Positions 1 through 41,568 of a DNA stretch of 64,000 nt are shown here, piece by piece; position 1 is the stretch's first letter; each line of letters starts with the position of its first letter. Made by a program: the position numbers and the translations under genes. A model generated the notes under the pieces. The model had not been told where the DNA came from. It did no database searches and worked only from the letters and a program-made list of their open reading frames with translations. Source of the DNA: Escherichia coli. GTDB lineage: Bacteria; Pseudomonadota; Gammaproteobacteria; Enterobacterales; Enterobacteriaceae. Location: assembly GCF_001677475.2 (NCBI RefSeq), contig NZ_CP015229.1; one strand, written 5' to 3'.

Positions 1-234
1 CTGGCCTGGGCCTCCAGCGCCGGGATCATCAGCCTGCTGTTTATTTTTGTCGCCTACCAGCCTGGCGTGGAAAACCAGACCGCCAGTTCGCTTGGCGGGA
101 TCGCGGCGATGGAAACATTACTGCCTGCGCTATTCCACCTGCTGCTGGCAGGGGCGATCCGCTTTTGCAAACTCAATAATCCTATGATGTCACGCATAGC
201 TACCGACCTGCGTCAGCGTCATGTACAGCCTTAA
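1..234 (+). CDS. 3' fragment (C-terminal 77 aa) of a membrane transporter, possibly a sugar:cation symporter; 5' end lies outside the window
   Basis: Open frame from position 1 to TAA at 232-234; translation is hydrophobic (…IISLLFIFVAYQP…LLPALFHLLLAGAIRF…) like a terminal TM helix pair; sits immediately upstream of a glycoside hydrolase gene. Family assignment is a guess. Confidence 0.45.
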   Translation: MAWASSAGIISLLFIFVAYQPGVENQTASSLGGIAAMETLLPALFHLLLAGAIRFCKLNNPMMSRIATDLRQRHVQP

Positions 235-244
235 GGAGCACAAG

Positions 245-2215
245 ATGAACATTTCGGAAGTCGATCTGCATAAACTGACGGTCAGCGATCCGTTCCTCGG
301 TCAGTACCAACAACTGGTCCGCGACGTGGTGATTCCTTATCAGTGGGATGCCTTGAACGATCGTATCCCAGAAGCGGAACCCAGCCATGCGATTGAAAAC
401 TTTCGCATTGCCGCCGGACTTCAGGAGGGTGAATTTTACGGGATGGTGTTTCAGGACAGCGACGTCGCCAAATGGCTGGAAGCGGTAGCCTGGTCGCTGT
501 GCCAGAAGCCGGACGCCGAACTGGAAAAAACCGCCGACGAGGTAATCGAACTGATCGCCTCCGCCCAATGCGAAGACGGCTATCTCAATACTTACTTTAC
601 GGTAAAAGTACCCGAAGAACGCTGGAGCAATCTGGCGGAGTGTCATGAACTTTACTGCGCCGGTCATCTGATTGAAGCCGGAGTCGCCTTCTTCCAGGCC
701 ACGGGCAAGCGGCGCTTGCTGGAAGTGGTTTGCCGTCTGGCCGATCATATCGACAGCGTATTTGGTCCAGATGAAAGTAAGTTACACGGTTACCCTGGTC
801 ACCCGGAAATTGAACTGGCACTGATGCGTCTGTATGAAGTGACCGAAGAGCCGCGCTACCTGGCACTGACGAACTATTTTGTCGAACAGCGTGGTGCGCA
901 ACCGCACTATTACGACCAGGAATATGAAAAGCGCGGGCAGACCTCGCACTGGCACACCTACGGCCCGGCGTGGATGGTGAAAGATAAAGCCTACAGCCAG
1001 GCGCATTTGCCCATCGCACAGCAACAAACCGCCATCGGACATGCAGTACGCTTTGTCTATCTGATGACCGGCGTCGCGCATCTCGCGCGTTTAAGTCACG
1101 ATGACAGCAAGCGTCAGGACTGCCTGCGGCTGTGGAACAATATGGCCCAGCGTCAGTTATATATTACCGGCGGCATTGGCTCGCAAAGCAGCGGCGAAGC
1201 GTTCACTAGCGATTACGATCTGCCGAATGACACGGTATACGCTGAAAGTTGCGCCTCCATCGGCCTGATGATGTTTGCCCGACGAATGCTGGAAATGGAA
1301 GGCGACAGTCAATATGCCGATGTGATGGAGCGCGCACTGTACAACACCGTGCTCGGCGGCATGGCGCTGGATGGCAAACATTTCTTCTATGTGAATCCGC
1401 TGGAAGTACATCCAAAATCGCTGAAATTCAACCATATCTACGATCACGTTAAACCGATCCGCCAGCGTTGGTTTGGCTGCGCTTGTTGTCCGCCAAATAT
1501 CGCCCGCGTGCTGACCTCGATTGGTCATTATCTCTACACGCCGCGTGAAGATGCGTTGTATATCAACATATACGCAGGAAACAGCATGGAAGTGCCGGTA
1601 GAAAATGGCACGCTGCGCCTGCGGGTTAGCGGGAACTATCCGTGGCAGGAGCAGGTGACGATTGCGGTTGAATCGCCCCAGCCGGTACGTCATACGCTGG
1701 CTTTACGTCTGCCGGACTGGTGCACACAGCCGCAGATCATATTGAATGGGGAAGAGGTCGAGCAGGATATTCGTAAAGGGTATTTGCACATTACCCGCGA
1801 ATGGCAGGAGGGCGATACGCTGAATCTGACTTTGCCGATGCCGGTACGCCGCGTTTACGGTAACCCGCTGGTGCGTCACGTCGCCGGAAAAGTGGCGATT
1901 CAGCGCGGCCCGCTGGTGTATTGCCTGGAACAGGCCGACAACGGCGAGTCACTGCATAATCTGTGGCTGCCCACCGATGCGCCATTTACGACATTTGAAG
2001 GCAAGGGATTGTTTAGCCATAAGATCTTAATCCAGGCACCGGGTTACCGGTATGAACAGAGCAATCCAGAGCAGCAACCGCTGTGGCATTACGACAGCGC
2101 GCCAGCCAAACGCCAGACGCAAACTCTGACCTTTATCCCGTGGTTTAGCTGGGCCAACCGGGGTGAAGGCGAAATGCGGATCTGGGTGAATGAGGAAAAG
2201 CATTGCCATCCGTAG
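245..2215 (+). CDS. Glycoside hydrolase family 127 (DUF1680) protein, beta-L-arabinofuranosidase-like
   Basis: ORF in track 221..2215; I place the start at ATG 245 (MNISEVDL…), 8 nt after AGGAG at 233-237. Contains the Cys-rich motif WFGCACCPPNIAR typical of HypBA1-type GH127 enzymes. Not part of K-12 gene order at this position as I recall it. Confidence 0.8.
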   Translation: MNISEVDLHKLTVSDPFLGQYQQLVRDVVIPYQWDALNDRIPEAEPSHAIENFRIAAGLQEGEFYGMVFQDSDVAKWLEAVAWSLCQKPDAELEKTADEVIELIASAQCEDGYLNTYFTVKVPEERWSNLAECHELYCAGHLIEAGVAFFQATGKRRLLEVVCRLADHIDSVFGPDESKLHGYPGHPEIELALMRLYEVTEEPRYLALTNYFVEQRGAQPHYYDQEYEKRGQTSHWHTYGPAWMVKDKAYSQAHLPIAQQQTAIGHAVRFVYLMTGVAHLARLSHDDSKRQDCLRLWNNMAQRQLYITGGIGSQSSGEAFTSDYDLPNDTVYAESCASIGLMMFARRMLEMEGDSQYADVMERALYNTVLGGMALDGKHFFYVNPLEVHPKSLKFNHIYDHVKPIRQRWFGCACCPPNIARVLTSIGHYLYTPREDALYINIYAGNSMEVPVENGTLRLRVSGNYPWQEQVTIAVESPQPVRHTLALRLPDWCTQPQIILNGEEVEQDIRKGYLHITREWQEGDTLNLTLPMPVRRVYGNPLVRHVAGKVAIQRGPLVYCLEQADNGESLHNLWLPTDAPFTTFEGKGLFSHKILIQAPGYRYEQSNPEQQPLWHYDSAPAKRQTQTLTFIPWFSWANRGEGEMRIWVNEEKHCHP

Positions 2216-2330
2216 GTTGGATAAGGCACTCGCGCCGCATCCAACGTAAGGAGCACATTGCCTGATGCGACGCTTAACACGTCTTATCAGGCATACAAGT
2301 CGGTGCGAGAGCGTAGGCCAGCCGCACCGA
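2216..2330. repeat. REP/BIME-like palindromic units between convergent GH127 gene and yiaT
   Basis: Palindromes gttggat…atccaac (2216-2245), gcctgatgcgacgc…gtcttatcaggc (2260-2292), cggtgcg…cgcaccg (2302-2330); the middle unit matches the canonical REP form. Confidence 0.6.
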
Positions 2331-3208: not shown

Positions 3209-4183
3209 ATGACAAAATTACAACTTAAGTACCGGGAGTTAAAAATTATCTCGGTAATCGCTGCCAGTGAAAATATCAGCCATGCCGCGACTGTACTTGG
3301 CATCGCACAGGCCAACGTCAGCAAATATCTTGCTGATTTTGAATCAAAAGTAGGTTTAAAAGTCTTTGACCGAACCACCCGGCAACTGATGCTCACACCT
3401 TTTGGTACCGCGCTGTTGCCATACATCAATGACATGCTGGACAGAAACGAGCAGCTTAATAATTTTATTGCAGATTATAAGCATGAGAAACGTGGTCGGG
3501 TCACTATCTATGCACCAACCGGCATAATTACCTATTTATCCAAACATGTAATCGATAAAATTAAAGATATCGGTGATATCACCTTATCGCTAAAAACCTG
3601 CAATCTTGAGCGTAATGCCTTTTATGAAGGCGTCGAATTTCCCGATGATTGTGATGTTTTAATCAGCTACGCTCCACCAAAAGATGAATCGCTGGTTGCC
3701 AGTTTTATTACGCAATATGTCGTAACCGCTTATGCCAGCCAGCGCTATCTTGAGAAACATCACATTAGCCGTCCTGACGAACTCGAACATCACTCCTGTA
3801 TTTTGATCGACTCAATGATGATCGACGACGCGAATATCTGGCGCTTCAACGTCTCCGGGAGTAAAGAGGTGCGGGATTATCGTGTGAAGGGAAATTACGT
3901 TTGCGACAACACGCAATCGGCGCTGGAGCTGGCACGAAATCACCTGGGGATTGTGTTTGCGCCAGACAAAAGTGTGCAGAGCGATCTGCAAGACGGCACG
4001 CTGGTGCCCTGCTTTCAGCACCCGTATGAATGGTGGCTGGATCTGGTGGCTATCTTCCGTAAACGGGAATACCAGCCCTGGCGGGTCCAGTATGTGCTGG
4101 ATGAAATGCTGCGTGAAATTCGCCACCAGCTTGCTCAGTCGCAGCAACTGCGGCCTGAACAAGCGGCGGAAAGCGAAGATTAA
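3209..4183 (+). CDS. yiaU: LysR-family transcriptional regulator YiaU
   Basis: 324-aa ORF with N-terminal HTH (…[38 protein letters not shown]…); divergent from yiaT, ATG at 3209. Confidence 0.85.
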
Positions 4184-5316
4184 TGATCGAGATAAAGGTA
4201 ATGCACCCAGCTGGTCATGCGTAATAACACTTTGCGCATCACCGAGACATGGCTGAAATGATCGGAGTAGACCGCCACCTGGGCGTAAATACCGTCTGGT
4301 AAAGCGCTCAAATCAGTATGCTCATCCAGTTCAATGGTCGCGATAACGCCATCTGAACCCGGCGCTGTGTTTAACGTCTGTAAGGTACCGGTCGACTGAT
4401 AAGCTCCACCGGGAACAGCTGGACTAATGGCTGCCAGCTTACCGCTGAATACCTTACCTGGCAGAGCATTAAACACCACTTCCGCATCGTCACCAGGAGC
4501 CAGTCGCAGCAAGGAGTTCTGACGGAACTGCGCCACGATTTGTCGTTTCTGATCGGGTATAAACACCATCACCGGACGTAGCGGCAGCGACGCGGCATAG
4601 GTACCCGGACGAATCAGGACCTGGGCCACGTAACCATCGCTCGGCGCACGCACTATCGTCTGCTCAAGGTTATATTTTGCTTCCGCGAGCTGCGCTTTCA
4701 GGCTGGCGATTAGAGAATGTTCACCCAACACCAGGCTATCCAGCTGGCTCTGGACCTGTTTTTGTTCCGCCGCCGATGACTTTACGGAGGCTTCCTGCGC
4801 CAGATAATTTTGCCGCGCCACATCAATATCGCGTTCTGAAAACGGGTTTACTTTCGCCTGGCTGCCGCGTGCGTAACGCTGATACTCTTTAGCGAATTTA
4901 TCCCGCGTGGCCTTTGCCTGCTGAGTATTCGCCGCCATCTCATCTAACTCTGCGCCCAACGCCCGCTGTTTATGTTCTGCGGTAACGATATCCGCCATCA
5001 GCCGATCCACCCGCGCCTGATAACGCGTCGGGTCCAGTCGAAAAAGCACCTCGCCTTTTTTAATCAGCGTATTTTTCTTATCCGTCACTTCAATCACCAC
5101 GCCTGTCACCTGTGGGACAACAGGGATGGAAATAACCGCTTTTTGCGCTTTAAAGGTATACGGATGGTTATAGTTCATTAACAGAATTAAACCGCTGACA
5201 ATAAATATTCCCCCCAGGGCCGCTGTGGGAATGGTCCATTTATTTACAGGAATTTTGAAGATCTTAAACATTGCCCATGCGAAAGCCACATAGGTCAAGA
5301 TAATCAGTAAATCCAT
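4180..5316 (-). CDS. yiaV: HlyD-family periplasmic adaptor (membrane-fusion) protein YiaV
   Basis: 378-aa ORF; N-terminal TM helix, coiled-coil middle, barrel-sandwich/biotinyl-like C-terminal region; ATG at 5316 lies 5 nt after the yiaW stop. Confidence 0.85.
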
Positions 5317-5321
5317 AAGTA

Positions 5322-5645
5322 TTACTCGGCAGAAGAGGATTTGATGTCGGCGAGCTGTTTCTCCAGCCCGGCAATACGCTGTTGTAGTTGCACAACGGAG
5401 GAGTCATGGTTTTGCATTCCCCATCCCCGCTCCGGGCGGTAAAGCGTGGCCCAAATCCACAAAAATGGCCAGATAACATGCAGCGTAAAAAGACTCACCC
5501 AACCAGCGACATGAATGGCGTCGGCATGAGGATGATTACGTTTTTTAGCAATCAGGTAGGGAATATCATGTAAAATAATAATCCCATAGAATATCACCAG
5601 AAATACAAAAATAAGCACTCCCAGTGCAAAATAATCCAGGAACAT
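5322..5645 (-). CDS. yiaW: Small inner-membrane protein YiaW (DUF3302-like)
   Basis: Track ORF 5322..5675; I choose ATG at 5645 ([13 protein letters not shown]…, 107 aa) with GAGGG upstream; two predicted TM helices plus a C-terminal coiled-coil tail. Confidence 0.8.
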
Positions 5646-6066
5646 ATTTCCCTCAGAGAATATAAAAAAGAACAATTAACGCATATTATGAAATGCCATG
5701 ATGCAGTGCAATTTCCTTATTTATATAACGACATATTGTTTTTTATATACTTTCTGAAGTGTGCTGCCTGGCTTTTCAGCAGGTCGAGGCTTATCATATT
5801 GAAATAATGGAACTATTGACAAAACTAATGAATAACTCCAGTAAAACATCCACAGTACAGATAAAGCGTATTAAACCTTCAATTATCTACCGTTTATTGC
5901 TGATTGGCCTCGGAACACCAATGGTGATTTACGGCCTGGTTCGCCCGCTCACCATCGAAACGCGAGATTAAACTCCTGGCAAAACACGCCCCAGAAACGC
6001 ACTTCTGTTGGCGTAGTCTGGGTTATTGCGCACGTAGGTTTAAAACGTAAATTGTAACAAAGTGCG

Positions 6067-6148
6067 CTTTGTTTATGCCGGATGCGGCGTGTACGCCTTA
6101 TCCGGCCTACGGTCAGGTCCCCGTAGGCATGATAAGACGCGTAAGCGT
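6067..6148. repeat. REP pair (BIME) downstream of aldB
   Basis: gccggatgcggcgtgtacgccttatccggcctac and gtaggcatgataagacgcgtaagcgtcgcatcaggc: canonical inverted REP units. Confidence 0.65.
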
Positions 6149-6189
6149 CGCATCAGGCAATGAATACCCAATGCGACCAGCTTCTTATA

Positions 6190-7728
6190 TCAGAACAGCC
6201 CCAACGGTTTATCCGAGTAGCTCACCAGCAGACACTTGGTTTGCTGATAATGCTCCAGCATCATCTTATGGGTTTCGCGTCCGATGCCCGACTGTTTGTA
6301 GCCGCCAAACGCCGCATGTGCCGGGTAAGCGTGATAACAGTTGGTCCACACGCGCCCGGCCTGAATGCCGCGCCCCATCTTATAGGCCAGATTACCGTTG
6401 CGGCTCCAGACGCCCGCGCCCAGGCCATATTGCGTGTCATTCGCCAGCTCCAGCGCCTCTTCCATCGTTTTGAAGGTGGTCACCGCCAGCACCGGGCCAA
6501 ATATCTCTTCCTGGAACACACGCATATTGTTCTGACCAAACAGAATCGTCGGTTCGAGGTAGTAGCCGTCTTTCAGTTCGCCTTCCAGCAGCTTGCGCCG
6601 CCCGCCGGTAAGCACATCTGCGCCCTCTTTTTTGCCGATATCAATGTAATTGAGGATGGTTTCCAGTTGCCCGTGAGATACCTGCGCGCCCATTTGCGTC
6701 ACGCTGTCGAGCGGGTTACCGCTACGAATGCTTTCAACACGACGGATGGCGCGTTCCATAAAGCGTTCGTAGATAGACTCCTGCACTAAAGCACGGCTTG
6801 GACAGGTGCAAACTTCGCCCTGGTTGAAGGCGAACAATGCAAAGCCCTCCAGCGCCTTATCGAAGAAAGCATCTTCTTCATCCATCACATCGGCAAAGAA
6901 GATATTTGGCGACTTACCGCCCAACTCCAGCGTCACCGGAATAATATTTTGCGTGGCGTACTGCATAATCTGCTGACCGACTTCCGTTGAGCCGGTAAAC
7001 GCCACTTTGGCGATACGTTTTGAGGTCGCCAGATATTCACCTATTTCGCCGCCCGCACCGTTGACCACGTTCACCACGCCTGGCGGCAGTAAATCACCGA
7101 CGATCTCCATCAAAAGCAACACTGAAAGCGGGGTAAGTCGTGCGGGTTTTAGCACCACGCAGTTGCCCGCCGCCAGCGCGGGAGCCATTTTCCAGCTCGC
7201 CATCAGCAACGGGAAGTTCCACGGGATAATCTGCCCCACCACGCCTAACGGTTCGTGGAAGTGATAAGCCACAGTTTCGCTATCGACTTCACTGATCCCA
7301 CCTTCCTGCGCCCGAATACACGAGGCGAAATAGCGGAAATGGTCAATCGCCAGCGGCACATCGGCAGCACTGGTTTCGCGGATGGGCTTGCCGTTATCCC
7401 AGGTTTCTGCCGTCGCTAACAGTTCGAGGTTCTGCTCCATCCGATCGGCAATCTTAAACAGAATCGCCGCGCGATCCTGCACCGAGGTATGCGCCCATTT
7501 GTCTTTCACTTTATGCGCGGCATCCAGCGCCAGATCGATGTCGCGTTTGCCCGAAGACGCCACTTCGCACAGTAGCTGCCCGGTCACCGGCGTCAGGTTC
7601 TGGTAATACTCGCCGTCGGCGGGTGCTACCCATTCGCCGCCGATAAAGTTGTCATAGCGAGCTTTTAACTTGAGGGGGAAACCATACTCGCCGGGCTTAA
7701 TCTGTGCTGAAGGGGGATTGTTGGTCAT
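6190..7728 (-). CDS. aldB: Aldehyde dehydrogenase B
   Basis: Track ORF is 558 aa; conserved protein begins at [17 protein letters not shown]… (ATG 7728, AAGGAGACGATC upstream), giving 512 aa; classic ALDH motifs present. Confidence 0.95.
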
Positions 7729-7892
7729 GATCGTCTCCTTGCGGTGTGAGGTATAACAAGGGTAGACGTGACTGGCGAAATCTTCGCCAGCCGGTGACAG
7801 CTTTACGACGGCAATCACGAATTTACGGGCAAGGATTACAGAGATAATTGAAAAATCGGCTGACAATTTGCCAGCCGTTGTGGGAATGATGA

Positions 7893-9044
7893 TTACATCG
7901 CAGCGCGATAAATCGCCACAATTTCTTCGTGAGTTGCCTGAATCGGGTTAGTAAATCCGCAGGCATCTTTCAGAGCATTGGTCGCCAGTACCGCGAAATC
8001 TTCTTCTTTCACGTTCAGATCGCGCAGACCTGCCGGAATATCGACTTTCTTCGCCAGTTCACGGATAGCGTTAATGCAGGCTTCTGCACCTTCCGCGTCG
8101 TTTTTACCTGTCACGTTCACGCCCATTGCAGCAGCGCAGTCACGCAGACGTGCGGCAGCTACTTTGCTGTTGAATACCTGAACGTGCGGCAGCAGAACGG
8201 CGTTACATACACCGTGCGGCAGGTTGTAGAAACCGCCTAACTGGTGCGCCATCGCATGAACATAACCCAAAGACGCATTGTTGAACGCCATACCGGCGAG
8301 GAACTGGGCATAAGCCATCGCTTCACGCGCTTTCGCATTGCTGCCATCTTCTACGGCTAACGGCAGGTTTTCGGCAATCATGGTCACGGCTTTCAGTGCG
8401 CAAGCGTCAGTGATCGGCGTTGCGGCAATAGACACATACGCTTCGATAGCGTGTGTTAAGGCATCCATACCCGTTGCAGCGGTCAGTGACTTCGGCATAC
8501 CGATCATCAGAGAGGAGTCATTGACAGAAAGCAGCGGAGTCACGTGTTTATCCACAATCGCCATTTTGATGTGGCGCGCTTCGTCAGTGATAATGCAGAA
8601 ACGGGTCATTTCAGACGCAGTACCCGCCGTGGTGTTGATGGCGATCATCGGCAACTGCGGTTTTGCAGAGCGGTCAACGCCTTCGTAATCGCGAATATCA
8701 CCGCCGTTGGCTGCCACCAGCGCAATGCCTTTCGCACAATCGTGCGGAGAACCACCACCTAAGGAAATCACGCTATCGCAATTATTTTCTTTCAGCAGTT
8801 TGAGGCCTGCGGCGACGTTTTCCGTAGTTGGGTTAGGCTGGGTGCCATCATAAATAACGCTAAAAATATTGCGTTCTTCCAGTGCTTTTTGCACATCGCC
8901 CGCCATACCTAATTTCGTTAAAATATTGTCAGTAACAATTAATGTACGGGTAAAGCCATAGTCTGCCATCATATTCATTGCATCATTCAATGAATCAGCG
9001 CCGATGACATTCACTGAAGGAATAAAAAAGGTTGAAGCTGCCAT
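7893..9044 (-). CDS. yiaY: Iron-containing (group III) alcohol dehydrogenase YiaY
   Basis: 383-aa ORF with Fe-ADH signatures ([11 protein letters not shown]…, …HAMAHQLGG…). Confidence 0.9.
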
Positions 9045-9142
9045 AAAACACTCCTGGAAGAGTAAAAAGGGCTGGCAGATTACAAAGTATTTTCATTCGG
9101 AAATATGATCAACATTACCGTTTATCAAAATATTTTTAATAA

Positions 9143-9175
9143 AAAGCACGTTACATTCATCAAATAACGTGCTTC
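9143..9175 (-). terminator. Candidate stem-loop downstream of selB (possible selAB terminator)
   Basis: Inverted repeat aaagcacgtta / taacgtgctt with an 11-nt loop in an AT-rich spacer; no clean U-tract, so weak. Confidence 0.3.
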
Positions 9176-9232
9176 TTTAATATTAATAAGAATTTTGTAT
9201 TAATTCATATTTATTATGAATTAATCATTTCC

Positions 9233-11077
9233 TTATTTTTCGGGAAATAATAATGCATCGCGCAATAAATGATCATTTCCACGACGCCGCGTAAAGCCAA
9301 TGCGGTCAAAATATTCCAGAATCTGAATTGCCAGCTTTCGGCCTACACCTAAGCGATCGCGGAAATCCGCCGCGCAGGTTGAGCCACATTCCTGATCGAG
9401 ATCGCGGATCATATTGGCAAATTCAACAATCCGATCATTACGGTAATAACGATCTTTGACGATCGCCGTAATTATCCCCTGCTGTGCCGCCTGGCGTAGC
9501 GTCAAGCGCATTGCCTGCTCGTCGGTTCCCGTCTCTTTTGCCAGGTCACGCACCCACCACGGCTCGTCACCAAACAGCGGCTCTGCTTTTTGCCAGATGG
9601 CCTGCTGCTCTTCGCTGAAGCCCGCTTTGTGATCCGGCAGATGCAGCCAGCCGTGATGACTGAGGATGTCGCCGCTTTCGCGCATCTTTTCAATCAGCAA
9701 CAGTACCAGCGCTTCATCTTCCATTGGCAACGCCATACGTCGCAGACGTTCGCGCCCAGGACCAGGTTCATCGCGATGTTGCTCATGATAAGTCGCTAAT
9801 GTGTCGAGAATTTTCCGCTGCCAGCGGGCGGCAACCGGCGCATTCAACAAGCTATAACCAGCCTGAATATAGCCAGGCTGTTGCAATAGTTCGCGCATCC
9901 CTTCGCCGTTGAGCTGCCGTGCCCAGGCGAAATCGGCAAGGTTAACCGCGCCGCGTTCCAGATGAACAGATAACGCATCGGCATCGCTCTGCGCCCGTGC
10001 CAGTGACGCCAGCCATTGCAGATATTCCGGCTTACGTTTACCGCGACGCGGCGGGTTAAGCATCACCACACGCGCCCCCGCCAGCGTGTTGCGGGCCGAG
10101 ATATCGCGCAGCACTAAGCGATCGTTATCCGCCAGCCACAGCGGCGTGTCGAACACCAGCTCGGCAAGGTTATCTTCCAGCAGCGAAACGCGCCCCGTAA
10201 CATGGCTGGCGGCGTGGTGAATATGCAGCGGCTGCCACTGGGTCAGCGGTGTATGAGTTTGAAGCTCGACAATCACCCGTGTGAACGGCTCTGGCGGCAC
10301 ATCGGCAAGCAGCCAGTCGCCACGGTTAATCTGCTCTTTTTCCGCATCACCCGCGATGTTAAGTGCGATACGCTGCCCGGCATGGGCGGTTTCTGTTGGC
10401 TGGTTTTGCGCATGCAGCGCACGTACACGCATCGATTTATTTACACCAGTCAGCCATAGTGAATCGCCTACCTTCACTTCCCCGCTTAACGCCGTACCGG
10501 TGACGACCAGCCCGGCACCTTTTACAGTAAATGCGCGGTCGATCGCGAGGCGGAAACTATGTTGGCTGGCGTGTTCACGTTCTGGTAACTGAAGCAGATG
10601 CTCGCGCAGGGCATCAATTCCCCGACCTTCGGTTGCTGCGGTGATAAACAGTTTTGCCTCAGCAAAACCGTATTCCCGCAGCACCTCCTTTACCTGGCGT
10701 TCAACCTCATCAACACGCGCTTCGTCCACGCGATCGGCTTTGGTCAGCGCCACTGTCAGCATCGGGTTACCAGTCAGCTGCAAAATCGCCAGATGCTCAC
10801 GGGTCTGTGCCATCACGCCGTCATCGCACGCCACCACCAACAGCGCGTGATCGATACCACCAACGCCCGCCAGCATGTTGGAAAGAAACTTTTCATGACC
10901 GGGAACGTCGATAAAACCAGGCACGCGGCCATCCGGCTGCGGCCAGTAGGCATAACCGAGATCGATGGTCATGCCGCGCTTTTTTTCTTCCGGCAGACGG
11001 TCGGCATTTACGCCAGTAATCGCCTGCAATAAGGTTGTTTTGCCGTGGTCAACGTGTCCGGCAGTCGCAATAATCAT
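9233..11077 (-). CDS. selB: Selenocysteine-specific elongation factor SelB
   Basis: 614-aa ORF; N-terminal GTPase motifs ([24 protein letters not shown]); start overlaps selA stop. Confidence 0.95.
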
Positions 11078-12465
11078 TTCAACAACATCTCCAAAAACCG
11101 TTGCTCATCTTCAAGGCAGCGTAAATCCAGCCACAATCGTCCGTCATAAATACGACCAATCACCGGCACTGGCAATTCACGCCAGCGGGCGGCTAATGAC
11201 TCAAGGTGGCTACCGCGTCCATCATGGGGTGTAAACGTTAATGCCGCGCTCGGCAGGCGATCAACCGGCAGCGAACCACTGCCAATCTGCGAAAGACATG
11301 GCATAACCTGGACTGCAAACTCCGCGCCGTAATGTGCGGCAAGGGGAGCCTGTAAACGTTGTGCCTGGATTTGAATGACCTCTGCGCTGCGGGTAAGCAG
11401 GCGCAGGGTCGGTAATTTTTCACTCAGCGCCTCAGGGTGTAAATAAAGACGCAGCGTGGCTTCCAGCGCCGCGAGGGTCATTTTATCCGCGCGTAATGCA
11501 CGCTTCAGTGGATGGCTTTGCAGGCGGGCGATCATCTCTTTTTTACCAACGATAATCCCTGCCTGCGGCCCGCCTAACAACTTGTCGCCGGAGAAGCTCA
11601 CCAGGCTGACGCCCGCCGCAATCAACTCCTGCGGCATCGGCTCTTTCGGCAAACCGTACTGGCTAAGATCGACCAGCGAACCACTGCCTAAATCAGTCAC
11701 TACGGGAACATCCAGTTCTTTGCCAAGCGCCACCAGTTCAGCTTCATCTATCGCTTTGGTGAACCCCTGAATGCTGTAGTTACTGGTATGTACTTTCATC
11801 AACAGTGCGGTATTTTCATTCACCGCCTGACGATAATCATTCGCGTGCGTGCGGTTGGTGGTCCCCACTTCGTGCAGGGTACAGCCAGCCTGACGCATGA
11901 CGTCAGGGATACGAAACGCGCCGCCGATCTCCACCAGTTCGCCACGAGACACCACCACCTCTTTACCGCTGGCAGTGGCCGCCAACATCAATAACACCGC
12001 CGCCGCATTGTTATTAACGATACAGGCATCTTCCGCCCCCGTAATACGGCACAGCAGCTGCGCCAGCGCACGATCGCGATGTCCGCGTCCGGCGTCGTCC
12101 AGATCGTACTCCAGCGTCACCGGCGAACGCATAGCCTGCGCAACGGCTTCCACCGCGGCTTCTGCCTGTAAAGCTCGCCCAAGATTGGTATGCAGCACGG
12201 TTCCCGTCAGGTTGATCACCGGACGCAGCGCGCTCTGCGCTTCTTTCGTCAACCGGGCATCGACTTCTTGCGCCCAGTTCTCACACCACGCGGGCAGCGT
12301 CTGGCTGTCACGAATCACTTCTCGCGCTTCGTCAAGCATCTGACGCAGCAATTCCACCACGCGGGTGTGACCATAAGTATCACGCAAAGAAAGGAAGGAG
12401 CTATCGCGCAATAAGCGATCAATAGCCGGAAGTTGACTATAGAGGGAACGCGTTTCGGTTGTCAT
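11074..12465 (-). CDS. selA: L-seryl-tRNA(Sec) selenium transferase SelA
   Basis: 463-aa ORF recognised as SelA ([19 protein letters not shown]…), PLP-dependent fold. Confidence 0.95.
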
Positions 12466-12562
12466 AGGAAACCTGGCTAATCAAGGCTCTCTCACACGGA
12501 GAAGGGCGTTTAACATAACCACGGATTGTAACGTGAGATGGGTCAGGAGGACATATCGCGCA

Positions 12563-13171
12563 TCAAGCCTTTGGCGGTTCGGTGCGAGCAAAACTTTCGC
12601 GGCTAAACAGGTTTTCGACCAGTTTGACTAAGTGTGGGCGGTCGACACACCAGCCTGGCGCAACGCGGCGGAAATTGAGATATCCGACGGCACAGGCAAT
12701 GGCGATAGTCGCCAGATTGACCGTATCGGTTTTGAGTGTGCCATCGACCAGATATCCTTCCAGCACATCCAGACTGCGGTTGATTTTCTCCCGCTGGCGT
12801 AACAATTCATCTTCAGACTGCTGCGCCGCCGGACGCGCCTGTTCGCGCACCGACACCAGCCCGGCATCCATAATACCGTCGGCCAGCGCCTCAATTTTAC
12901 GCACTCGCAACGACTCCAGCGGATCGCGCGGCAACATCGCCGGAGCGACATTCATTAATTCAATATATTCGGCAATGATCGGCGAATCAAACCAACATTC
13001 GCCCTCTTCGGTCACCAGCACCGGCACTTTCCCTAACGGGTTAAATTGCGCCACGCCGTTGTCCGCGTTATAGGGCAGCTCATTAATAAATTCGAAAGTT
13101 ATGCCCTTTTCTAACAACAGAATAGAAAGTTTGCGTACAAACGGGCTGGTGTAGCTACCGACGAGTTTCAT
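12563..13171 (-). CDS. yibF: Glutathione S-transferase-like protein YibF
   Basis: 202-aa ORF with GST N-terminal thioredoxin-like fold ([24 protein letters not shown]…). Confidence 0.85.
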
Positions 13172-13241
13172 GCCGAGTCCTTTGTGCGAGGAAAAATATC
13201 AGTATGGCTCAGGCTCGCGCAAAACACAGGTGACATAAGTC

Positions 13242-14378
13242 TCAATGATCCAAATAAAGATAATGCATCCAACTGGTCATTCTCAGCAGCACCTTCCGCA
13301 TCACCGAAACATGGCTGAAATGGTCGGAGTAAACTGCTACCTGGGCGTAAATGCCGTCGGGTAAGGCATCGATATCATCGTTGGGGTCCAGTTCAATGGT
13401 TCCCAGCACACCGTCCGTGCCGGGCACGACCGTTAATGATTGCAATACCCCCTGCGCCTGATAAGAACCGCCTGGCACGACAGGTAAAATACTGGTCAGT
13501 TTGCCGTGGAACACCTGCCCAGGTAGCGCGTTAAACACCACTTCCGCATCATCGCCGGGTTTCAGACGTAACAGCGAGTTCTGCCGAAATTGGGCGACAA
13601 TTTGCCGTTTTTGCTCGGGGATGAAAACCATCACCGGACGTAGCGGCAAGGCAGCTGCGTATGTACCTGGGCGGATCAGTACCTGAGTAACGTAGCCATT
13701 GCTTGGTGCGCGAATGACAGTCTGCTCAAGGTTATATTTTGCTTCAGTAAGTTGCGCTCTTAAGCTCACAATCTGCGACTGCTCGCCGTTAACCATACTG
13801 TCGAGCTGGCTCTGGATCTGCGCCTGCTCCGCCACCGAGCCTTTCACCAGCGCGTCCTGCGCGAGGAAGTTTTGCCGCGCATCGTCGATGTCACGTTCCG
13901 AGAACGGATTCACCGCCGCCTGGCTACCTTTCAGGTAACGTTGATAATTTTTAAACAGACGGTCGCGCTCCGCTGAAACCTGGGTGGTGTTGGCCTGCGC
14001 TTCAGTGAGCTGGGCGCGCAGCGTCTTTATATTATGCGTCGCCGTCATCAGGTCAGCCTGAAGTCTGTCAACTCGCGCCTGGTAACGAACCGGGTCGAGT
14101 TTAAAAAGCACCTCGCCCTTTTGAATAAGCTGATTATTCTTGTCAGTGACTTCAGTAACAATTCCCGTCACCTGTGGCGTGATGGGGATCGCTATCACTG
14201 CCTTTTGCGCGGTAAAAGTGTAAGGATGGTTGTAGTTCATCAATAAAATCAAACCACTCACCAGAAATACGCCTCCCAACGCCGCCGTCGCCAGCGTCCA
14301 CTGATTCACCGGAATGCGGAAGATTTTAAATACTGCCCATGCCAGCGCCACGTAAGTTAAAACAATTAACAGATCCAT
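13242..14378 (-). CDS. yibH: HlyD-family periplasmic adaptor protein YibH (paralog of YiaV)
   Basis: 378 aa; co-linear with YiaV over its full length with identical C-terminus (…[33 protein letters not shown]). Confidence 0.85.
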
Positions 14379-14380
14379 AA

Positions 14381-14743
14381 TCAGATCTCCGGGAACGTGG
14401 AATAGTCACTCTTTTTTTCAGCTGCAAGTTGGTGCTCCAGCCGGGAAATACGGTCAGAAAGTGCGGCGATTTCCGGGTCAGTCACTTTCTCCTGCGACGC
14501 AACATGTGACTGCATGCCCCAGCCGCGCTCCGGTTGATAGAGCGTCGCCCAGATCCACAGAAACGGCCAGATAACATGCAGAGTAAACAGGCTAACCCAG
14601 CCCGCCGTATGAATAGCGTCGGCATGGGGATGGTTGCGCTTTTTGGCAATCAAATAAGGGATGTCATGTATCGCGATGATTCCATAAAAAATCACCAGAA
14701 AGACGAAGATCAGCACTCCCAACGCGAAGTAGTTTAGAAACAT
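14381..14743 (-). CDS. yibI: Small inner-membrane protein YibI (paralog of YiaW, DUF3302-like)
   Basis: 120 aa, [23 protein letters not shown]…; ATG at 14743 preceded by GAGG; stop 3 nt before the yibH start. Confidence 0.8.
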
Positions 14744-14959
14744 ATCTGCCTCGGATTCACGCTTATCAGTGTTGTTTTTTGGCTGGCAGCCGGAAGGGAG
14801 TCAGGCTGATACTTTGACATTAATCTGCGTTTGCCAATCTCGCCATCACACCGAAGGATAATTTTAAAAGGCGATGAGTTGCTCAGTTACAAAACTGTCT
14901 TAAGGCAAAGTCAGAACATGTTGCAGATCACATCAGGTGAATTACCGAAGAAAATATCT

Positions 14960-15136
14960 TGTGATTCAGATCACAAAAATCTAACAAACCATCAAAACAA
15001 AAATGTGACATTACTCACATTTAAATGCCATTTTTAGCGAAAATCGCCGCCTTGTTGCTTTTTTACACAAGCGTTTTGTGATGAACGTCACGCCAATTAC
15101 CTCTCTACCCCCTATATTTATGTGACTGATATCACA
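14960..15136 (+). promoter_or_regulatory. mtl operon control region with four CRP-consensus sites
   Basis: TGTGA-N6-TCACA matches at 14960-14975 (tgtgattcagatcaca), 15004-15019 (tgtgacattactcaca), 15077-15092 (tgtgatgaacgtcacg), 15121-15136 (tgtgactgatatcaca), all upstream of mtlA ATG 15280. Confidence 0.6.
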
Positions 15137-20023: not shown

Positions 20024-20048
20024 CCCTCTTACCTGTATATCTCCCTCA

Positions 20049-20074
20049 CATCCCGCGTTTCTAAATGCGGGATG
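20049..20074 (+). terminator. Candidate stem-loop downstream of yibL
   Basis: Perfect 8-bp stem catcccgc/gcgggatg with a 10-nt loop, 26 nt after the yibL stop; T-rich stretch follows only after ~20 nt. Confidence 0.35.
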
Positions 20075-20513
20075 CAACAAATATCCTCCTCTTTTTCCTC
20101 TGTTACCTCGTAGAGTCTACTTTTTACCAATGGCACTAAATCTGAAAATGCATTCAGTAAAAGGTTTGGTTCGACGCCTAAAAATGGAAGATATCATTCA
20201 TAAAATAAAACTTTTGCCGTTATTTTTTCCATCTACATTCTAAAAACTCACCCAAAACATTTATTGTGTGAATATTAAATGAAAGCTATTTTTCTGCTTT
20301 AAATGCAGTGTTTGACATCTGATAACCCTCCTCATTAAAATCCGCCTCCCTAACACAATTAAACAATTTTAAAACTTAATAAATAATTTTCATAACAAAT
20401 ATATTCGCAACATTCATAAAGCCAGCCGTATAAATCGCAAAAGCATCAACCACAAATGGACACATCCCTTAGACCGCGTTGGTATCAGGGATGATATGTA
20501 AGGATAACTTTAT

Positions 20514-21197
20514 ATGAAAGTGAATAAATTATTGATAAGCGTCCTGGCGGCTTCGACAATACTGATGCTGTCAGGTTGTGATTACGTCGAAAAAACGAAA
20601 GTCGTTGATGAACTCACAAAACAACAAGAAGAACAAAAGGCCAGAATTGATCAACTCGAAAAACGATTAGAACAAGAAACCAAAAAGACAAACACCATTG
20701 AAAAACAAAGCATTAGTCTGATAAACAGTACAAAGCTGCTGGCTCAGGTAGTGAAAGAGATTAAGCATCAGCAAGATACATTTGTCTTTACTGAATTTAA
20801 CCCCGATCAAACAAAATATTTCATTTTAAATAACGGTTCGGTAGGTATTGCCGGCAGGGTGTTATCTGTTGAAGCAATAGAAAATGGCAGTGTTATTCAT
20901 ATGTCATTGGCCAATTTATTAAGTGTTCCCGTATCAAATATTGGTTTTCATGCCACCTGGGGCGGTGAAAGACCGGGTGATCAAAAAGAATATGCCAAAT
21001 GGCAACAACTGCTATTTAGCACCAACATGAACTCCACGCTGAAATTATTACCAGGTCAATGGCAAGACATTAACTTGACGTTAAAAGGGGTGTCTCCCAA
21101 CAACCTGAAATACCTGAAGTTGGCTATTAATATGCAGAATATCAACTTCGACAACCTTCCACCTGCTGATAACCGGCAGAAAAAAAGCAAAAAATAA
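20514..21197 (+). CDS. Inner-membrane lipoprotein, SadB-like putative helper of trimeric autotransporter biogenesis
   Basis: 227 aa; signal peptide with lipobox LSGC then Asp at +2 (C22-D23, inner-membrane retention); charged coiled-coil segment (QQEEQKARIDQLEKRLEQETKK); 43 bp upstream of the adhesin gene on the same strand; AAGGA 9 nt before the ATG. Function assigned by analogy with Salmonella sadB-sadA. Confidence 0.7.
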   Translation: MKVNKLLISVLAASTILMLSGCDYVEKTKVVDELTKQQEEQKARIDQLEKRLEQETKKTNTIEKQSISLINSTKLLAQVVKEIKHQQDTFVFTEFNPDQTKYFILNNGSVGIAGRVLSVEAIENGSVIHMSLANLLSVPVSNIGFHATWGGERPGDQKEYAKWQQLLFSTNMNSTLKLLPGQWQDINLTLKGVSPNNLKYLKLAINMQNINFDNLPPADNRQKKSKK

Positions 21198-21240
21198 ATG
21201 CAGTCATTGCACTTATATCAAGGAATAGAGAGCAACAACA

Positions 21241-24200
21241 ATGAACAAAATTTTTAAAGTTATCTGGAACCCTGCGACGGGAAGTTACAGCGTCGCCAGC
21301 GAAACGGCAAAAAGCCGTGGAAAGAAGAGCGGTCGCAGCAAGCTGTTAATTTCTGCGTTGGTTGCCGGTGGGTTGCTGTCGTCGTTCGGGGCGAGTGCTT
21401 CTGTCAGTCTTGATGGTGGTACATATTCTGATGGCACCGAACTTACTGATGCATGGATTGCTATTGGTAAAGGTGCGAAAGCTTCCTCTGTAGGCGGTAG
21501 CACAGCAAGTATTTCTATTGGGGTAAATGCAATCTCTGCTGCTGGGGCTACTGCAGTGGGTTATAACAGTAATGCTACTGGACAAAGTTCAGTATCAATG
21601 GGGCAGCTATCGAAAGCCACAGGGAGCAGGGGGGTTGCTATCGGCAGTGGAGCTAGTGCCATTGGCGACTATACAGTTGCATTAGCGGTTGGCTCCAGTG
21701 CTAGCGGTGAGAGTGCAGTGGCAATAGGTCAAGGTTCCGGAGCCAAAAATAAAGGTAGTGTTGCGTTAGGTAACAGAGCGTCATCATTAGGAGAAAAATC
21801 GGTAGCACTAGGGGTAGACAGTAAGGCCACTGGTGACGATAGCCTGGCATTAGGTAGAAACGCCTTGGGCAATAGCACAGGTTCCATTGCAATGGGTGCC
21901 GCAAGCGAAGCCAATGGATTATATAGTTTGGCATTAGGCGCAAGCAGCGTAGCTAACGCGGACAATACCGTTGCGCTCGGATATGGTGCCAATGCAGCCA
22001 AAGCTGGAGCAATGGCTTTCGGTCAGGCAGGAAAGGCAGATGGTGTAAATTCTATTGCGCTGGGTAATAAAAGTCAGTCAAGCGGCGAAAACAGTATTGT
22101 GCTTGGACAAGAAAGCTATGCTGGTAGTGAAAAAAGTATTGCGATTGGTAGCCTGTCCAACGTAACCGGTGTTAACTCCGTTGCTCTGGGCACAGAGTCT
22201 ACTGCCGTGGAAGATAATACTGTTTCAGTAGGTAACGACACGCTGCAGCGTAAAATTGTCCATATGGGAAAAGGCGATATTAGCAGTACCAGTACTGATG
22301 CCATCAATGGTTCACAGCTTTATGATATCAGTAAGTCAGTTGCAGACCGTCTGGGCGGCGGTGCCTCCGTGAGTACTGCCGGGGTTGTTAACGCCCCTAA
22401 CTACAAACTGCAAAGTGGTAACTTTAATAATGTTGGCGACGCATTAAAGGGTCTTGATGATAATACGTTGCAATGGGACTCGCTTAAAAAAGTCTACAGT
22501 GCAAAACACGGTTCCGATGCCACCAGCAAAATCACCAACGTTACGGCGGGTGAGCTGAACGCATCCAGTACCGACGCCGTTAACGGTTCTCAGTTGAAAA
22601 CCACTAACGACAATGTGGCAACCAACACCACTAATATCAGCAACCTGACCGGCGAAGTTGCTAACAACACCACCAATATCACTAACCTGACGAATGATGT
22701 TGCCGCCAACACCACCAGTATCACCAACCTGGCTGATACGGTGACTAACCTTGGTGAAGATGCGCTGAAATGGGATGACACCGCTGGCGTATTCACTGCT
22801 GCACACGGCACCGAAGCCACCAACAAAATCACCAATGTTACGGCAGGTGAGCTGACGGAGACCAGTACCGATGCGGTTAACGGTTCTCAGTTGAAAACCA
22901 CTAACGATAACGTGGCAACCAACACCACCAGTATCACCAACCTGACTGATACAGTGACTAACCTTGGTGCCGACGCGCTGGCATGGGATGACGCCTCAGG
23001 TGCATTCACCGCCAAACACGGCACCGAAGCCACCAACAAAATCACTAACGTTACGGCAGGTGAACTGACGGAGACCAGTACCGATGCCGTTAACGGTTCT
23101 CAGTTGAAAACCACTAACGATAACGTGGCAACCAACACCACCAATATCAGCAACCTGACCGGCGAAGTTGCTAACAACACCACCAACATCACTAACCTGA
23201 CGAATGATGTTGCCGCCAACACCACCAGTATCACCAACCTGGCTGATACGGTGACTAACCTTGGTGCCGACGCGCTGGCATGGGATGACGCCTCAGGTGC
23301 ATTCACCGCCAAACACGGCACCGAAGCCACCAACAAAATCACTAACGTTACGGCGGGTGAGCTGACGGAGACCAGTACTGATGCCGTTAACGGTTCTCAG
23401 TTAAAAACCACTAACGACAATGTGGCAACCAACACCACCAACATCACCAATCTGGCTGATACGGTGAACAACCTCGGTGAAGATGCGCTGAAATGGGATG
23501 ACGCCGCAAGCGCATTCACCGCTGCACACGGCACCGAAGCCACCAGCAAAATCACTAACGTCACCGCTGGAACAATCTCGTCTACCAGTACCGACGCTGT
23601 TAACGGTGGGCAACTCTTTAGCTTAAGTGATTCACTGGCAGACTATTTTGGCGGTAACGCCTCGGTTGATGAAAACGGTGTATTTACTGGCCCGTCCTAC
23701 ACCATCGGTAGCAACAGCTACGATAACGTAGGTGATGCGCTGGCGGCGATTAACACCTCCTTTAGCACTTCACTGGGCGACGCTCTGCTGTGGGATGAAA
23801 CGGCAAGTGCATTCAGCGCCGGCCACGGTGGCAATGCCAGCAAAATTACCAATGTCGCAAACGGTACTATTTCTGAAACCAGCACCGATGCCATCAATGG
23901 TGGGCAACTCTACGGTGTGAGCAACTCTGTTGTTGATGCCCTGGGCGGTGGCGCCGCAGTAAATGCTGACGGTAGCATCAGTGCGCCGACGTACTCCATT
24001 GCTGATACCGATTACAATAACGTCGGTGATGCTCTGGACGCGATCGACTCAACCCTGGATGATGCGCTGCTCTGGGACGCAACCGCCGGTGAAAATGGTG
24101 CGTTCAGCGCCAGCCGCGATGGCAAAGCCAGCGTAATCACTAATGTTGCTAATGGTGATATTTCTGAAACCAGTACTGATGCAATTAATGGTTCACAGTT

Positions 24201-25905
24201 GTTCGCCACCAACACGTTGATCAATCAGCAAAATGAGATCATCAACCAGATTGCCGGTAATACCAGCACAGACTACATCGAAGAGAACGGTGCGGGTCTG
24301 AACTATGCGCGTACTAATGACACCGGCTTAACCTTTATTGATGCGAGCGCATCAGGTACTGGCGCTACAGCGGTGGGTTATAACGCTGTCGCTTCCGGCG
24401 AAAGCAGTGTCGCAATTGGTCAGAATAGCAGCAGCAGCGTTGATACTGGTATCGCGCTGGGTAGCGAATCCGTCTCCAGCCGTGTGATTGTTAAAGGTTC
24501 TCGTAACACCAGCGTAACCGAAGAAGGCGTTGTGATTGGTTACGACACCACTGACGGCGAACTGCTTGGTGCATTGTCGATTGGCGATGATGGTAAGTAC
24601 CGTCAGATCATCAACGTTGCTGATGGTACTGAATCCCATGACGCCGTGACTGTACGCCAGTTGCAAAACGCCATTGGTGCGGTCGCCACTACGCCGACCA
24701 AGTACTACCATGCCAACTCAACGGAAGAAGATTCACTGGCGGTAGGTACTGACTCGCTGGCGATGGGCGCGAAAACTATCGTCAATGGTAATGCGGGTAT
24801 TGGTATCGGCCTGAATACTCTGGTTCTGGCAGATGCCATCAACGGTATTGCTATCGGTTCTAACGCACGCGCCAACCATGCAAACAGTATTGCAATGGGT
24901 AATGGTTCTCAGACCACTCGCGGCGCTCAGACTGGCTACACCGCCTACAACATGGACGCGCCGCAGAACTCTGTCGGTGAGTTCTCTGTCGGCAGTGAAG
25001 ACGGTCAACGTCAGATCACTAATGTCGCGGCGGGTTCGGCAGATACCGATGCCGTTAACGTTGGTCAGTTGAAAGTGACGGACGCACAGGTTTCCCAGAA
25101 CACCCAGAGCATTACTAACCTGAATACTCAGGTAACGAATCTGGATACCCGCGTCACCAATATCGAAAACGGTATTGGCGATATCGTAAGCACCGGTAGC
25201 ACCAAGTACTTCAAGACCAACACCGATGGCGTAGATGCTAACGCGCAGGGTAAAGACAGTGTTGCGATTGGCTCTGGCTCTATTGCTGCCGCTGATAACA
25301 GCGTTGCGCTGGGTACTGGCTCTGTGGCAAACGAAGAAAATACGATCTCCGTAGGTTCTTCCACTAACCAACGCCGTATCACCAACGTTGCCGCTGGTAA
25401 AAATGCTACTGACGCGGTTAACGTTGCGCAGTTGAAGTCTTCCGAAGCAGGCGGCGTGCGCTATGACACCAAAGCTGACGGTTCTGTTGATTACAGCAAC
25501 ATCACTCTCGGCGGTGGTAATGGCGGAACGACTCGCATCAGCAACGTTTCCGCTGGCGTTAACAACAACGACGCGGTGAACTACGCGCAGTTGAAGCAAA
25601 GCGTGCAGGAAACGAAGCAATACACCGATCAGCGCATGGTTGAGATGGATAACAAACTGTCCAAAACCGAAAGCAAGTTGAGCGGTGGTATCGCTTCTGC
25701 AATGGCGATGACCGGTCTGCCGCAGGCTTACACGCCAGGTGCCAGCATGGCCTCCATTGGTGGCGGTACATACAACGGTGAATCGGCTGTTGCTTTAGGT
25801 GTGTCGATGGTGAGCGCCAACGGTCGTTGGGTCTACAAATTACAAGGTAGTACCAATAGCCAGGGTGAATACTCCGCCGCACTTGGTGCCGGTATTCAGT
25901 GGTAA
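21241..25905 (+). CDS. upaG: Trimeric autotransporter adhesin (YadA-like), UpaG/EhaG family
   Basis: 1554-aa ORF; extended signal peptide [21 protein letters not shown]…; YadA-like head repeats (…SVALG.NS.A.G…); long Thr/Asn-rich repetitive stalk; C-terminal membrane-anchor domain ending …AALGAGIQW. Confidence 0.9.
22561..23580 (+). repeat. Intragenic tandem duplication in the adhesin stalk (2 x ~510 bp)
   Basis: 22561-23070 and 23071-23580 align co-linearly; the first ~300 bp of each copy differ at only a few positions, the remainder is ~85% similar. Further divergent stalk repeats with 210-300 bp spacing extend to ~24240. Confidence 0.7.
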
Positions 25906-25937
25906 TGACCCATTAACAAATGGGTAAACGCCAAATT

Positions 25938-26020
25938 GCCTGATGCGCTACGCTTATCAGGCCTACAGGGGATTCTGCACATTCCTGTAGGCCGGATAAG
26001 GCGTTCACGCCGCATCCGGC
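25938..26020. repeat. REP pair (BIME) downstream of the adhesin gene
   Basis: gcctgatgcgctacgcttatcaggcctac (25938-25966) and gtaggccggataaggcgttcacgccgcatccggc (25987-26020). Confidence 0.65.
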
Positions 26021-41355: not shown

Positions 41356-41568
41356 TGCGATTCTCCAGACAGGGCAAATTCCAGCACATATTACCCAAAC
41401 TTATAGGTCGCGACGAGATGACGCGTTAACACTTCTGCAAAATTCAGGATAAATAACGTCCATCAATCTCACTTTTGGCGAATGGCTGAAGCCAACGCCG
41501 TGTAGTGATATGATAGAAGTATTCGTGTCTGAGATTGTCTCTGACTCCATAATTCGAAGGTTACAGTT

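Follow-up and report, generated by a model that had tools for sequence, protein, structure and literature searches.

An RhsA-free allele of the yibF–yibH junction in a divergent Escherichia coli genome

The 70 bp that separate yibF from yibH in this Escherichia coli genome are very probably a spacer of ancestral type that was never expanded, and, of the two alleles of a presence/absence polymorphism known for decades, the genome has the RhsA-free one. At this position K-12 has a large Rhs element, which is missing from the whole stretch of 64 kb analysed here (hereafter the window). The RhsA-free allele of this site, rhs locus 10, is real, correctly read, ordinary and already known; the finding has little importance by itself, and what it offers is a correct comparative annotation.

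The junction and its K-12 counterpart

The gap from the yibF start codon to the yibH stop codon is exactly 70 bp (13172–13241), as given both by the sequence and by the ORF list, in which the ORFs 12563–13171 and 13242–14378 leave precisely this interval; an earlier note on this DNA had reported the same distance. The locus is laid out as follows.

selA, 11074–12465, minus strand: 463-aa ORF; SelA, TIGR00474, 632.7 bits
yibF, 12563–13171, minus strand: 202-aa ORF; glutathione S-transferase homologue
yibH–yibF intergenic spacer (unoccupied RhsA site), 13172–13241, minus strand: 70 bp
yibF leader, 13172–13208, minus strand: 37 bp, common to empty and RhsA-occupied genomes, with K-12 homology up to 13208
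filler TCAGGCTCGCGCAAAACACAGGTGACATAAGT, 13209–13240, no strand assigned: 32 bp, specific to the empty allele, with 8,249 bp in its place in K-12
yibH, 13242–14378, minus strand: 378-aa ORF; HlyD-family (HlyD/EmrA-type) periplasmic adaptor
yibI, 14381–14743, minus strand: 120-aa ORF; Pfam DUF3302, 140 bits; partner of yibH

The gene yibI is the first in the same-strand run yibI–yibH–yibF, and the neighbours are K-12-like: selA and selB follow on the yibF side, yibI and mtlADR on the yibH side. YibF matches the NCBIfam equivalog PRK10357 over its full length, at 407.7 bits against a cut-off of 181. YibF and YibH are each 100% identical in amino-acid sequence to their K-12 counterparts, and YibI is 98.3% identical; the nucleotide identity of yibH and the sequence downstream (13241–15000) to K-12 is about 95%, though the YibH protein is unchanged. 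A paralogous pair of a DUF3302 gene and an HlyD-adaptor gene, yiaW–yiaV (window 4183–5645), lies 8 kb from yibIH; its proteins are 75–76% identical to YibI and YibH, and the pair is also present in K-12.

For the comparison with K-12, we used the locus of MFDpir, an MG1655 derivative, in which 8,287 bp lie between the yibF start and the yibH stop; this interval contains rhsA, yibA and yibG, along with two Rhs core fragments and an Imm57 immunity pseudogene with a frameshift. The earlier note had placed rhsA and associated yib genes at this position in K-12, and it had named a 70-bp spacing in K-12 as the observation that would overturn its reading. This gene content is borne out, and the K-12 spacing is more than 8 kb in MFDpir; in MG1655 and W3110, a query spanning the junction breaks at the same base. 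Pairwise BLAST shows homology to K-12 ending at window position 13208 and restarting at 13241, one base ahead of the yibH stop codon, and the breakpoints are placed at 13208/13209 and 13240/13241. Between them, 32 bp specific to the window (13209–13240) stand against 8,249 bp specific to K-12 (5752–14000 of the K-12 locus, L001), within flanks that are collinear and align at 97.5% and 95.2%. The filler agrees with the K-12 sequence at the same position in 10 of 32 bases, which is chance level. K-12 differs from the window in that the element has taken the place of 32 bp instead of being cleanly inserted; the 37-bp leader of yibF and the stop codon of yibH are spared. The description of the junction as the insertion point of a polymorphic toxin locus is apt in that K-12 does have an Rhs locus there, and needs amending in that this was no simple insertion, 32 bp having been replaced by 8,249 bp.

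The site is indeed empty here, as had been claimed. Neither the 8,249-bp K-12 element (blastn) nor the RhsA protein (tblastn) has a match anywhere in the 64-kb window, and no ORF of the ORF list falls within the 70-bp spacer. By these searches the window holds no Rhs polymorphic-toxin element, the hallmark of which is a large YD-repeat core ORF with, behind it, a variable toxin tip at the C terminus and then an immunity gene. The ends of the K-12 element show no terminal inverted repeats, no direct repeats linking them and no target duplication, and no recombinase is annotated inside it. The marks of a mobile-element attachment site (target-site duplication, terminal repeats, recombinase) are thus absent, and the 32 bp were replaced, not duplicated.

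The yibF leader contains an AGGA ribosome-binding site and, at the end away from yibF, the conserved GCCATACTG motif (window 13200–13208, minus strand, some 30 bp before the yibF ATG), which is kept in Escherichia, Citrobacter, Kluyvera and Lelliottia. The sole conserved feature of the spacer is GCCATACT(G), found from Escherichia to Lelliottia, and the conserved motif sits exactly at the inner edge of the DNA that is retained in RhsA-occupied genomes. A consensus scan of the spacer detected no sigma-70 promoter and no intrinsic terminator, and its RNA fold is no better than those of shuffled sequences (z = −0.93). Although that scan called no promoter, CATACT, at that distance of some 30 bp from the yibF start codon, is a possible candidate for a −10 element. 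Where the site is empty, read-through may place yibF on one transcript with yibIH, and an Rhs element at the site would interrupt this read-through from yibIH to yibF.

Frequency of the empty site and divergence of the genome

With the 1.8-kb yibF–yibH segment as query, both genes were found in one place in 1,523 of 5,425 complete RefSeq E. coli genomes; where a listed genome was split, its match to yibH begins at query base 679, which corresponds to window 13241. A 181-bp query centred on the junction gave an end-to-end, single-piece match in 28% of complete E. coli genomes (1,521 of 5,424), UTI89 and LF82 among them, and every occupied genome listed, MG1655, W3110, C600 and O157:H7 included, stops matching exactly at query base 89 (window 13208). 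The same 70-bp spacer length is seen in ETEC1738. Because the same junction is present in other natural isolates, it is a population polymorphism, not a private deletion. Since 28% of complete E. coli genomes have the empty site, it is a weak strain marker, usable as one presence/absence marker among several for strain typing and for the evolution of rhs repertoires.

The occupied sites vary in the distance between yibF and yibH, from 6,533 bp in FORC_044 through 8,287 bp in K-12 to 10,135 bp in TUM14759, whose element contains NTF2-fold immunity genes and a frameshifted core. Such differences in size and cargo are the behaviour expected of a polymorphic toxin locus with arrays of orphan tips and immunity genes. 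The genome studied here has no RhsA toxin/immunity locus, and hence none of the RhsA-associated immunity genes of K-12-like strains. A relic of an occupied site is found in Escherichia sp. MOD1-EC7003 (L007, 1–2925), where 147 bp of the RhsA left end are present with no rhs core; unrelated small ORFs follow the left end, one of which looked on inspection like a fragment of an H-repeat/ISAs1-type transposase.

That the strain is not K-12, as the earlier note had concluded from the junction, is true but understates the difference, and the real distinction lies in sequence divergence. Over 55.7 kb of collinear sequence, identity of the window to K-12 is about 95.8%, and the best of about 5,425 complete E. 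coli genomes reaches 98.0% over each of the two segments tested, namely the 1.8-kb yibF–yibH segment and an 11.5-kb core. None of the GTDB representatives among the loci recovered with YibF is closer than 96%. A draft assembly, GCA_019140535.1, differs from the window at 4 positions in 21,077 bp (99.98% identity) and shares its yibF–yibH junction. Judged by these identities, the genome belongs to a divergent branch of the E. coli complex that has no close complete-genome relative in the collection; a divergence level like that of cryptic clade I would be our guess.

Elsewhere in the window, other segments also differ from K-12. A 5.9-kb segment between yibL and lldP (20024–25962) is absent from K-12; it encodes a YadA-type trimeric autotransporter adhesin of 1,554 aa (21241–25905), annotated as EhaG in other E. 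coli, and has a 227-aa ORF (20514–21197) where other E. coli have an annotated DUF3251 protein. A gene resembling GH127 beta-L-arabinofuranosidases (221–2215) is likewise absent from K-12 together with its upstream DNA (window 1–2317), the K-12 counterpart consisting of pseudogene remnants alone, beside yiaT. The interval between kbl and rfaD is 1,283 bp long in K-12, where it includes yibB (htrL), and is reduced to 61 bp in the window (41460–41520).

Ancestral state and alternative histories

A scan for YibF with one genome per species returned 55 loci. The order yibI–yibH–yibF–selA with a spacer of 61–92 bp between yibH and yibF is found in E. whittamii, two other Escherichia species, Citrobacter amalonaticus, Kluyvera cryocrescens, Lelliottia, Huaxiibacter and several others; the length of exactly 70 bp is shared with E. 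whittamii and other Escherichia species. Among other genera, there are loci with no yibIH, where mtlA adjoins yibF, and loci in which the spacer varies in length alone, from 61 to 174 bp. The filler itself is identical to that of E. whittamii and other Escherichia species at 26–28 of 32 positions (84–88%), and its ungapped alignment with C. amalonaticus has 21 of 32 identities, a score that none of 20,000 shuffles equalled. Because the filler can be aligned with these outgroups, both within Escherichia and in C. amalonaticus, the empty spacer is the ancestral allele, not a scar of deletion, and the Rhs element is derived.

Elsewhere in E. coli, the central 32 bp are exchanged for a 6.5–10 kb Rhs polymorphic-toxin element, made up of rhsA, its immunity gene and orphan toxin-tip/immunity modules, and transcribed away from yibF. 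The original gain was plausibly a single illegitimate event, because the sampled occupied genomes share their breakpoints and the element has neither terminal repeats nor a target duplication. Later, the element would have spread, or would have been removed, via homologous recombination in the flanking genes.

Secondary loss would give the junction a different past: the lineage once held RhsA, and either a deletion left the 70 bp or an empty allele replaced the occupied one by recombination. The site is polymorphic among related genomes, one of which (L059) has an identical SelB protein, 96.6% identical DNA and rhsA adjoining yibF with the K-12 left end, its contig ending inside rhsA; since this relative is occupied, an occupied allele could have been swapped for an empty one through recombination. 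Decay at the site is shown by the relic at L007, and the yibF–yibH segment is 98.0% identical to that of the empty-site genome ETEC1738, compared with 96.1–97.1% over two blocks spanning its surroundings. A deletion, however, would be expected to leave Rhs-end sequence or to take flanking DNA, whereas the spacer retains its 70 bp, resembles that of other Escherichia over the filler and can still be aligned with Citrobacter, and the window contains no Rhs remnant. A recombinational replacement, for its part, would end in an identical ancestral allele, and the sequence would be read no differently. We therefore regard secondary loss as improbable, while noting that gain, decay and, probably, recombinational allele replacement all occur at the yibF–yibH site; the allele is of ancestral type, and the data are still compatible with a past occupation of this lineage by RhsA. 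An artefact of assembly, in which a repeated Rhs element was collapsed or skipped and yibF was falsely joined to yibH, deserves mention because multi-copy Rhs cores often break draft assemblies, as they do where the L059 contig ends. Yet a collapse would not produce a 32-bp filler resembling that of the outgroups, the conserved and alignable spacer is found whole in 1,521 complete genomes as well as in several further species, and the near-identical independent assembly GCA_019140535.1 has the same junction, which for practical purposes rules a collapse out.

The situation in E. albertii bears on how the site came to be occupied. In this early-branching Escherichia species, which has no empty spacer, a MOSC/YiiM-like gene of 215 aa (215–230 aa; Pfam MOSC, 77 bits) lies between yibH and yibF, at the counterpart of window 13209–13240 (L064, 9141–10000; L008, 1–838), and its DNA has no match among 5,426 complete E. 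coli genomes. Homology of E. albertii to the window ends at 13208/13209, the RhsA breakpoint, and the next 17–22 bp resemble the left end of K-12 RhsA, not the filler of the window. A lone insertion into an empty site is therefore too simple an account of how the left junction arose. One could take the 32-bp spot for a specific hot spot of recombination, or an attachment site, into which unrelated cargo is drawn, with the empty spacer as an unoccupied target, as two unrelated cargoes are found at one spot (Rhs in E. coli and the MOSC gene in E. albertii), both with an identical left breakpoint relative to the window, directly beside the conserved GCCATACTG. We give this reading next to no weight: E. 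albertii and K-12 share those roughly 17–22 bp past the breakpoint, so their left junctions probably go back to one inherited event, there is no integrase, terminal repeat or target duplication, and the other genera vary in spacer length alone. Descent of the K-12 and E. albertii left junctions from one event is the simplest reading, a hot spot being the less likely alternative. A related proposal is that the base directly upstream of GCCATACTG is a preferred recombination point at which unrelated cargo (MOSC, Rhs) was repeatedly swapped in, the 'RhsA left end' of K-12 still including roughly 20 bp from an earlier insertion like that of E. albertii. This we consider unlikely; if it were true, the site that RhsA entered would have been filled beforehand, unlike the empty one of this genome. 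An ancestral-type spacer that was never expanded remains our preferred reading of the junction in this genome.

Relation to known Rhs loci

The rhsA locus was reportedly delimited by Feulner et al. in 1990 as 8,249 bp in K-12, with an unrelated 32-bp sequence in an Rhs-free strain. The Rhs-free ('Rhs0') allele of that work reportedly lies at the same site beside yibF and has the same 8,249-bp and 32-bp figures, a likeness in lengths; the window comes from a more divergent lineage, at about 95.8% to K-12. The K-12 RhsA element (rhsA–yibA, orphan Rhs tips, yibG and the Imm57 pseudogene) fills the position that is empty here, between collinear flanks, and compared with it the window has no toxin, immunity or orphan modules at the yibF–yibH site. 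The yibH–MOSC–yibF arrangement of E. albertii has the same flanking genes and, relative to the window, the same left breakpoint, with the spacer there holding the MOSC gene.

Modules of this kind have a counterpart in Dickeya dadantii, whose Rhs systems encode polymorphic toxin/immunity pairs together with orphan toxin-tip/immunity modules (Poole et al. 2011, PMC3150448). In a survey of 20 strains that recognized 11 rhs positions, rhs locus 10 was defined by its yibF and yibH flanks, was present in some E. coli/Shigella strains and absent in others, and was inferred to postdate the split from an rhs-poor group of pathogenic E. coli (Jackson et al. 2009, BMC Genomics 10:584, PMC2935791). The ancestral empty state confirmed by our comparison agrees with that work, and what the present analysis adds to it is a frequency on about 5,425 complete genomes (28% empty), breakpoints at the level of single bases, and polarisation of the two alleles by outgroup genera.
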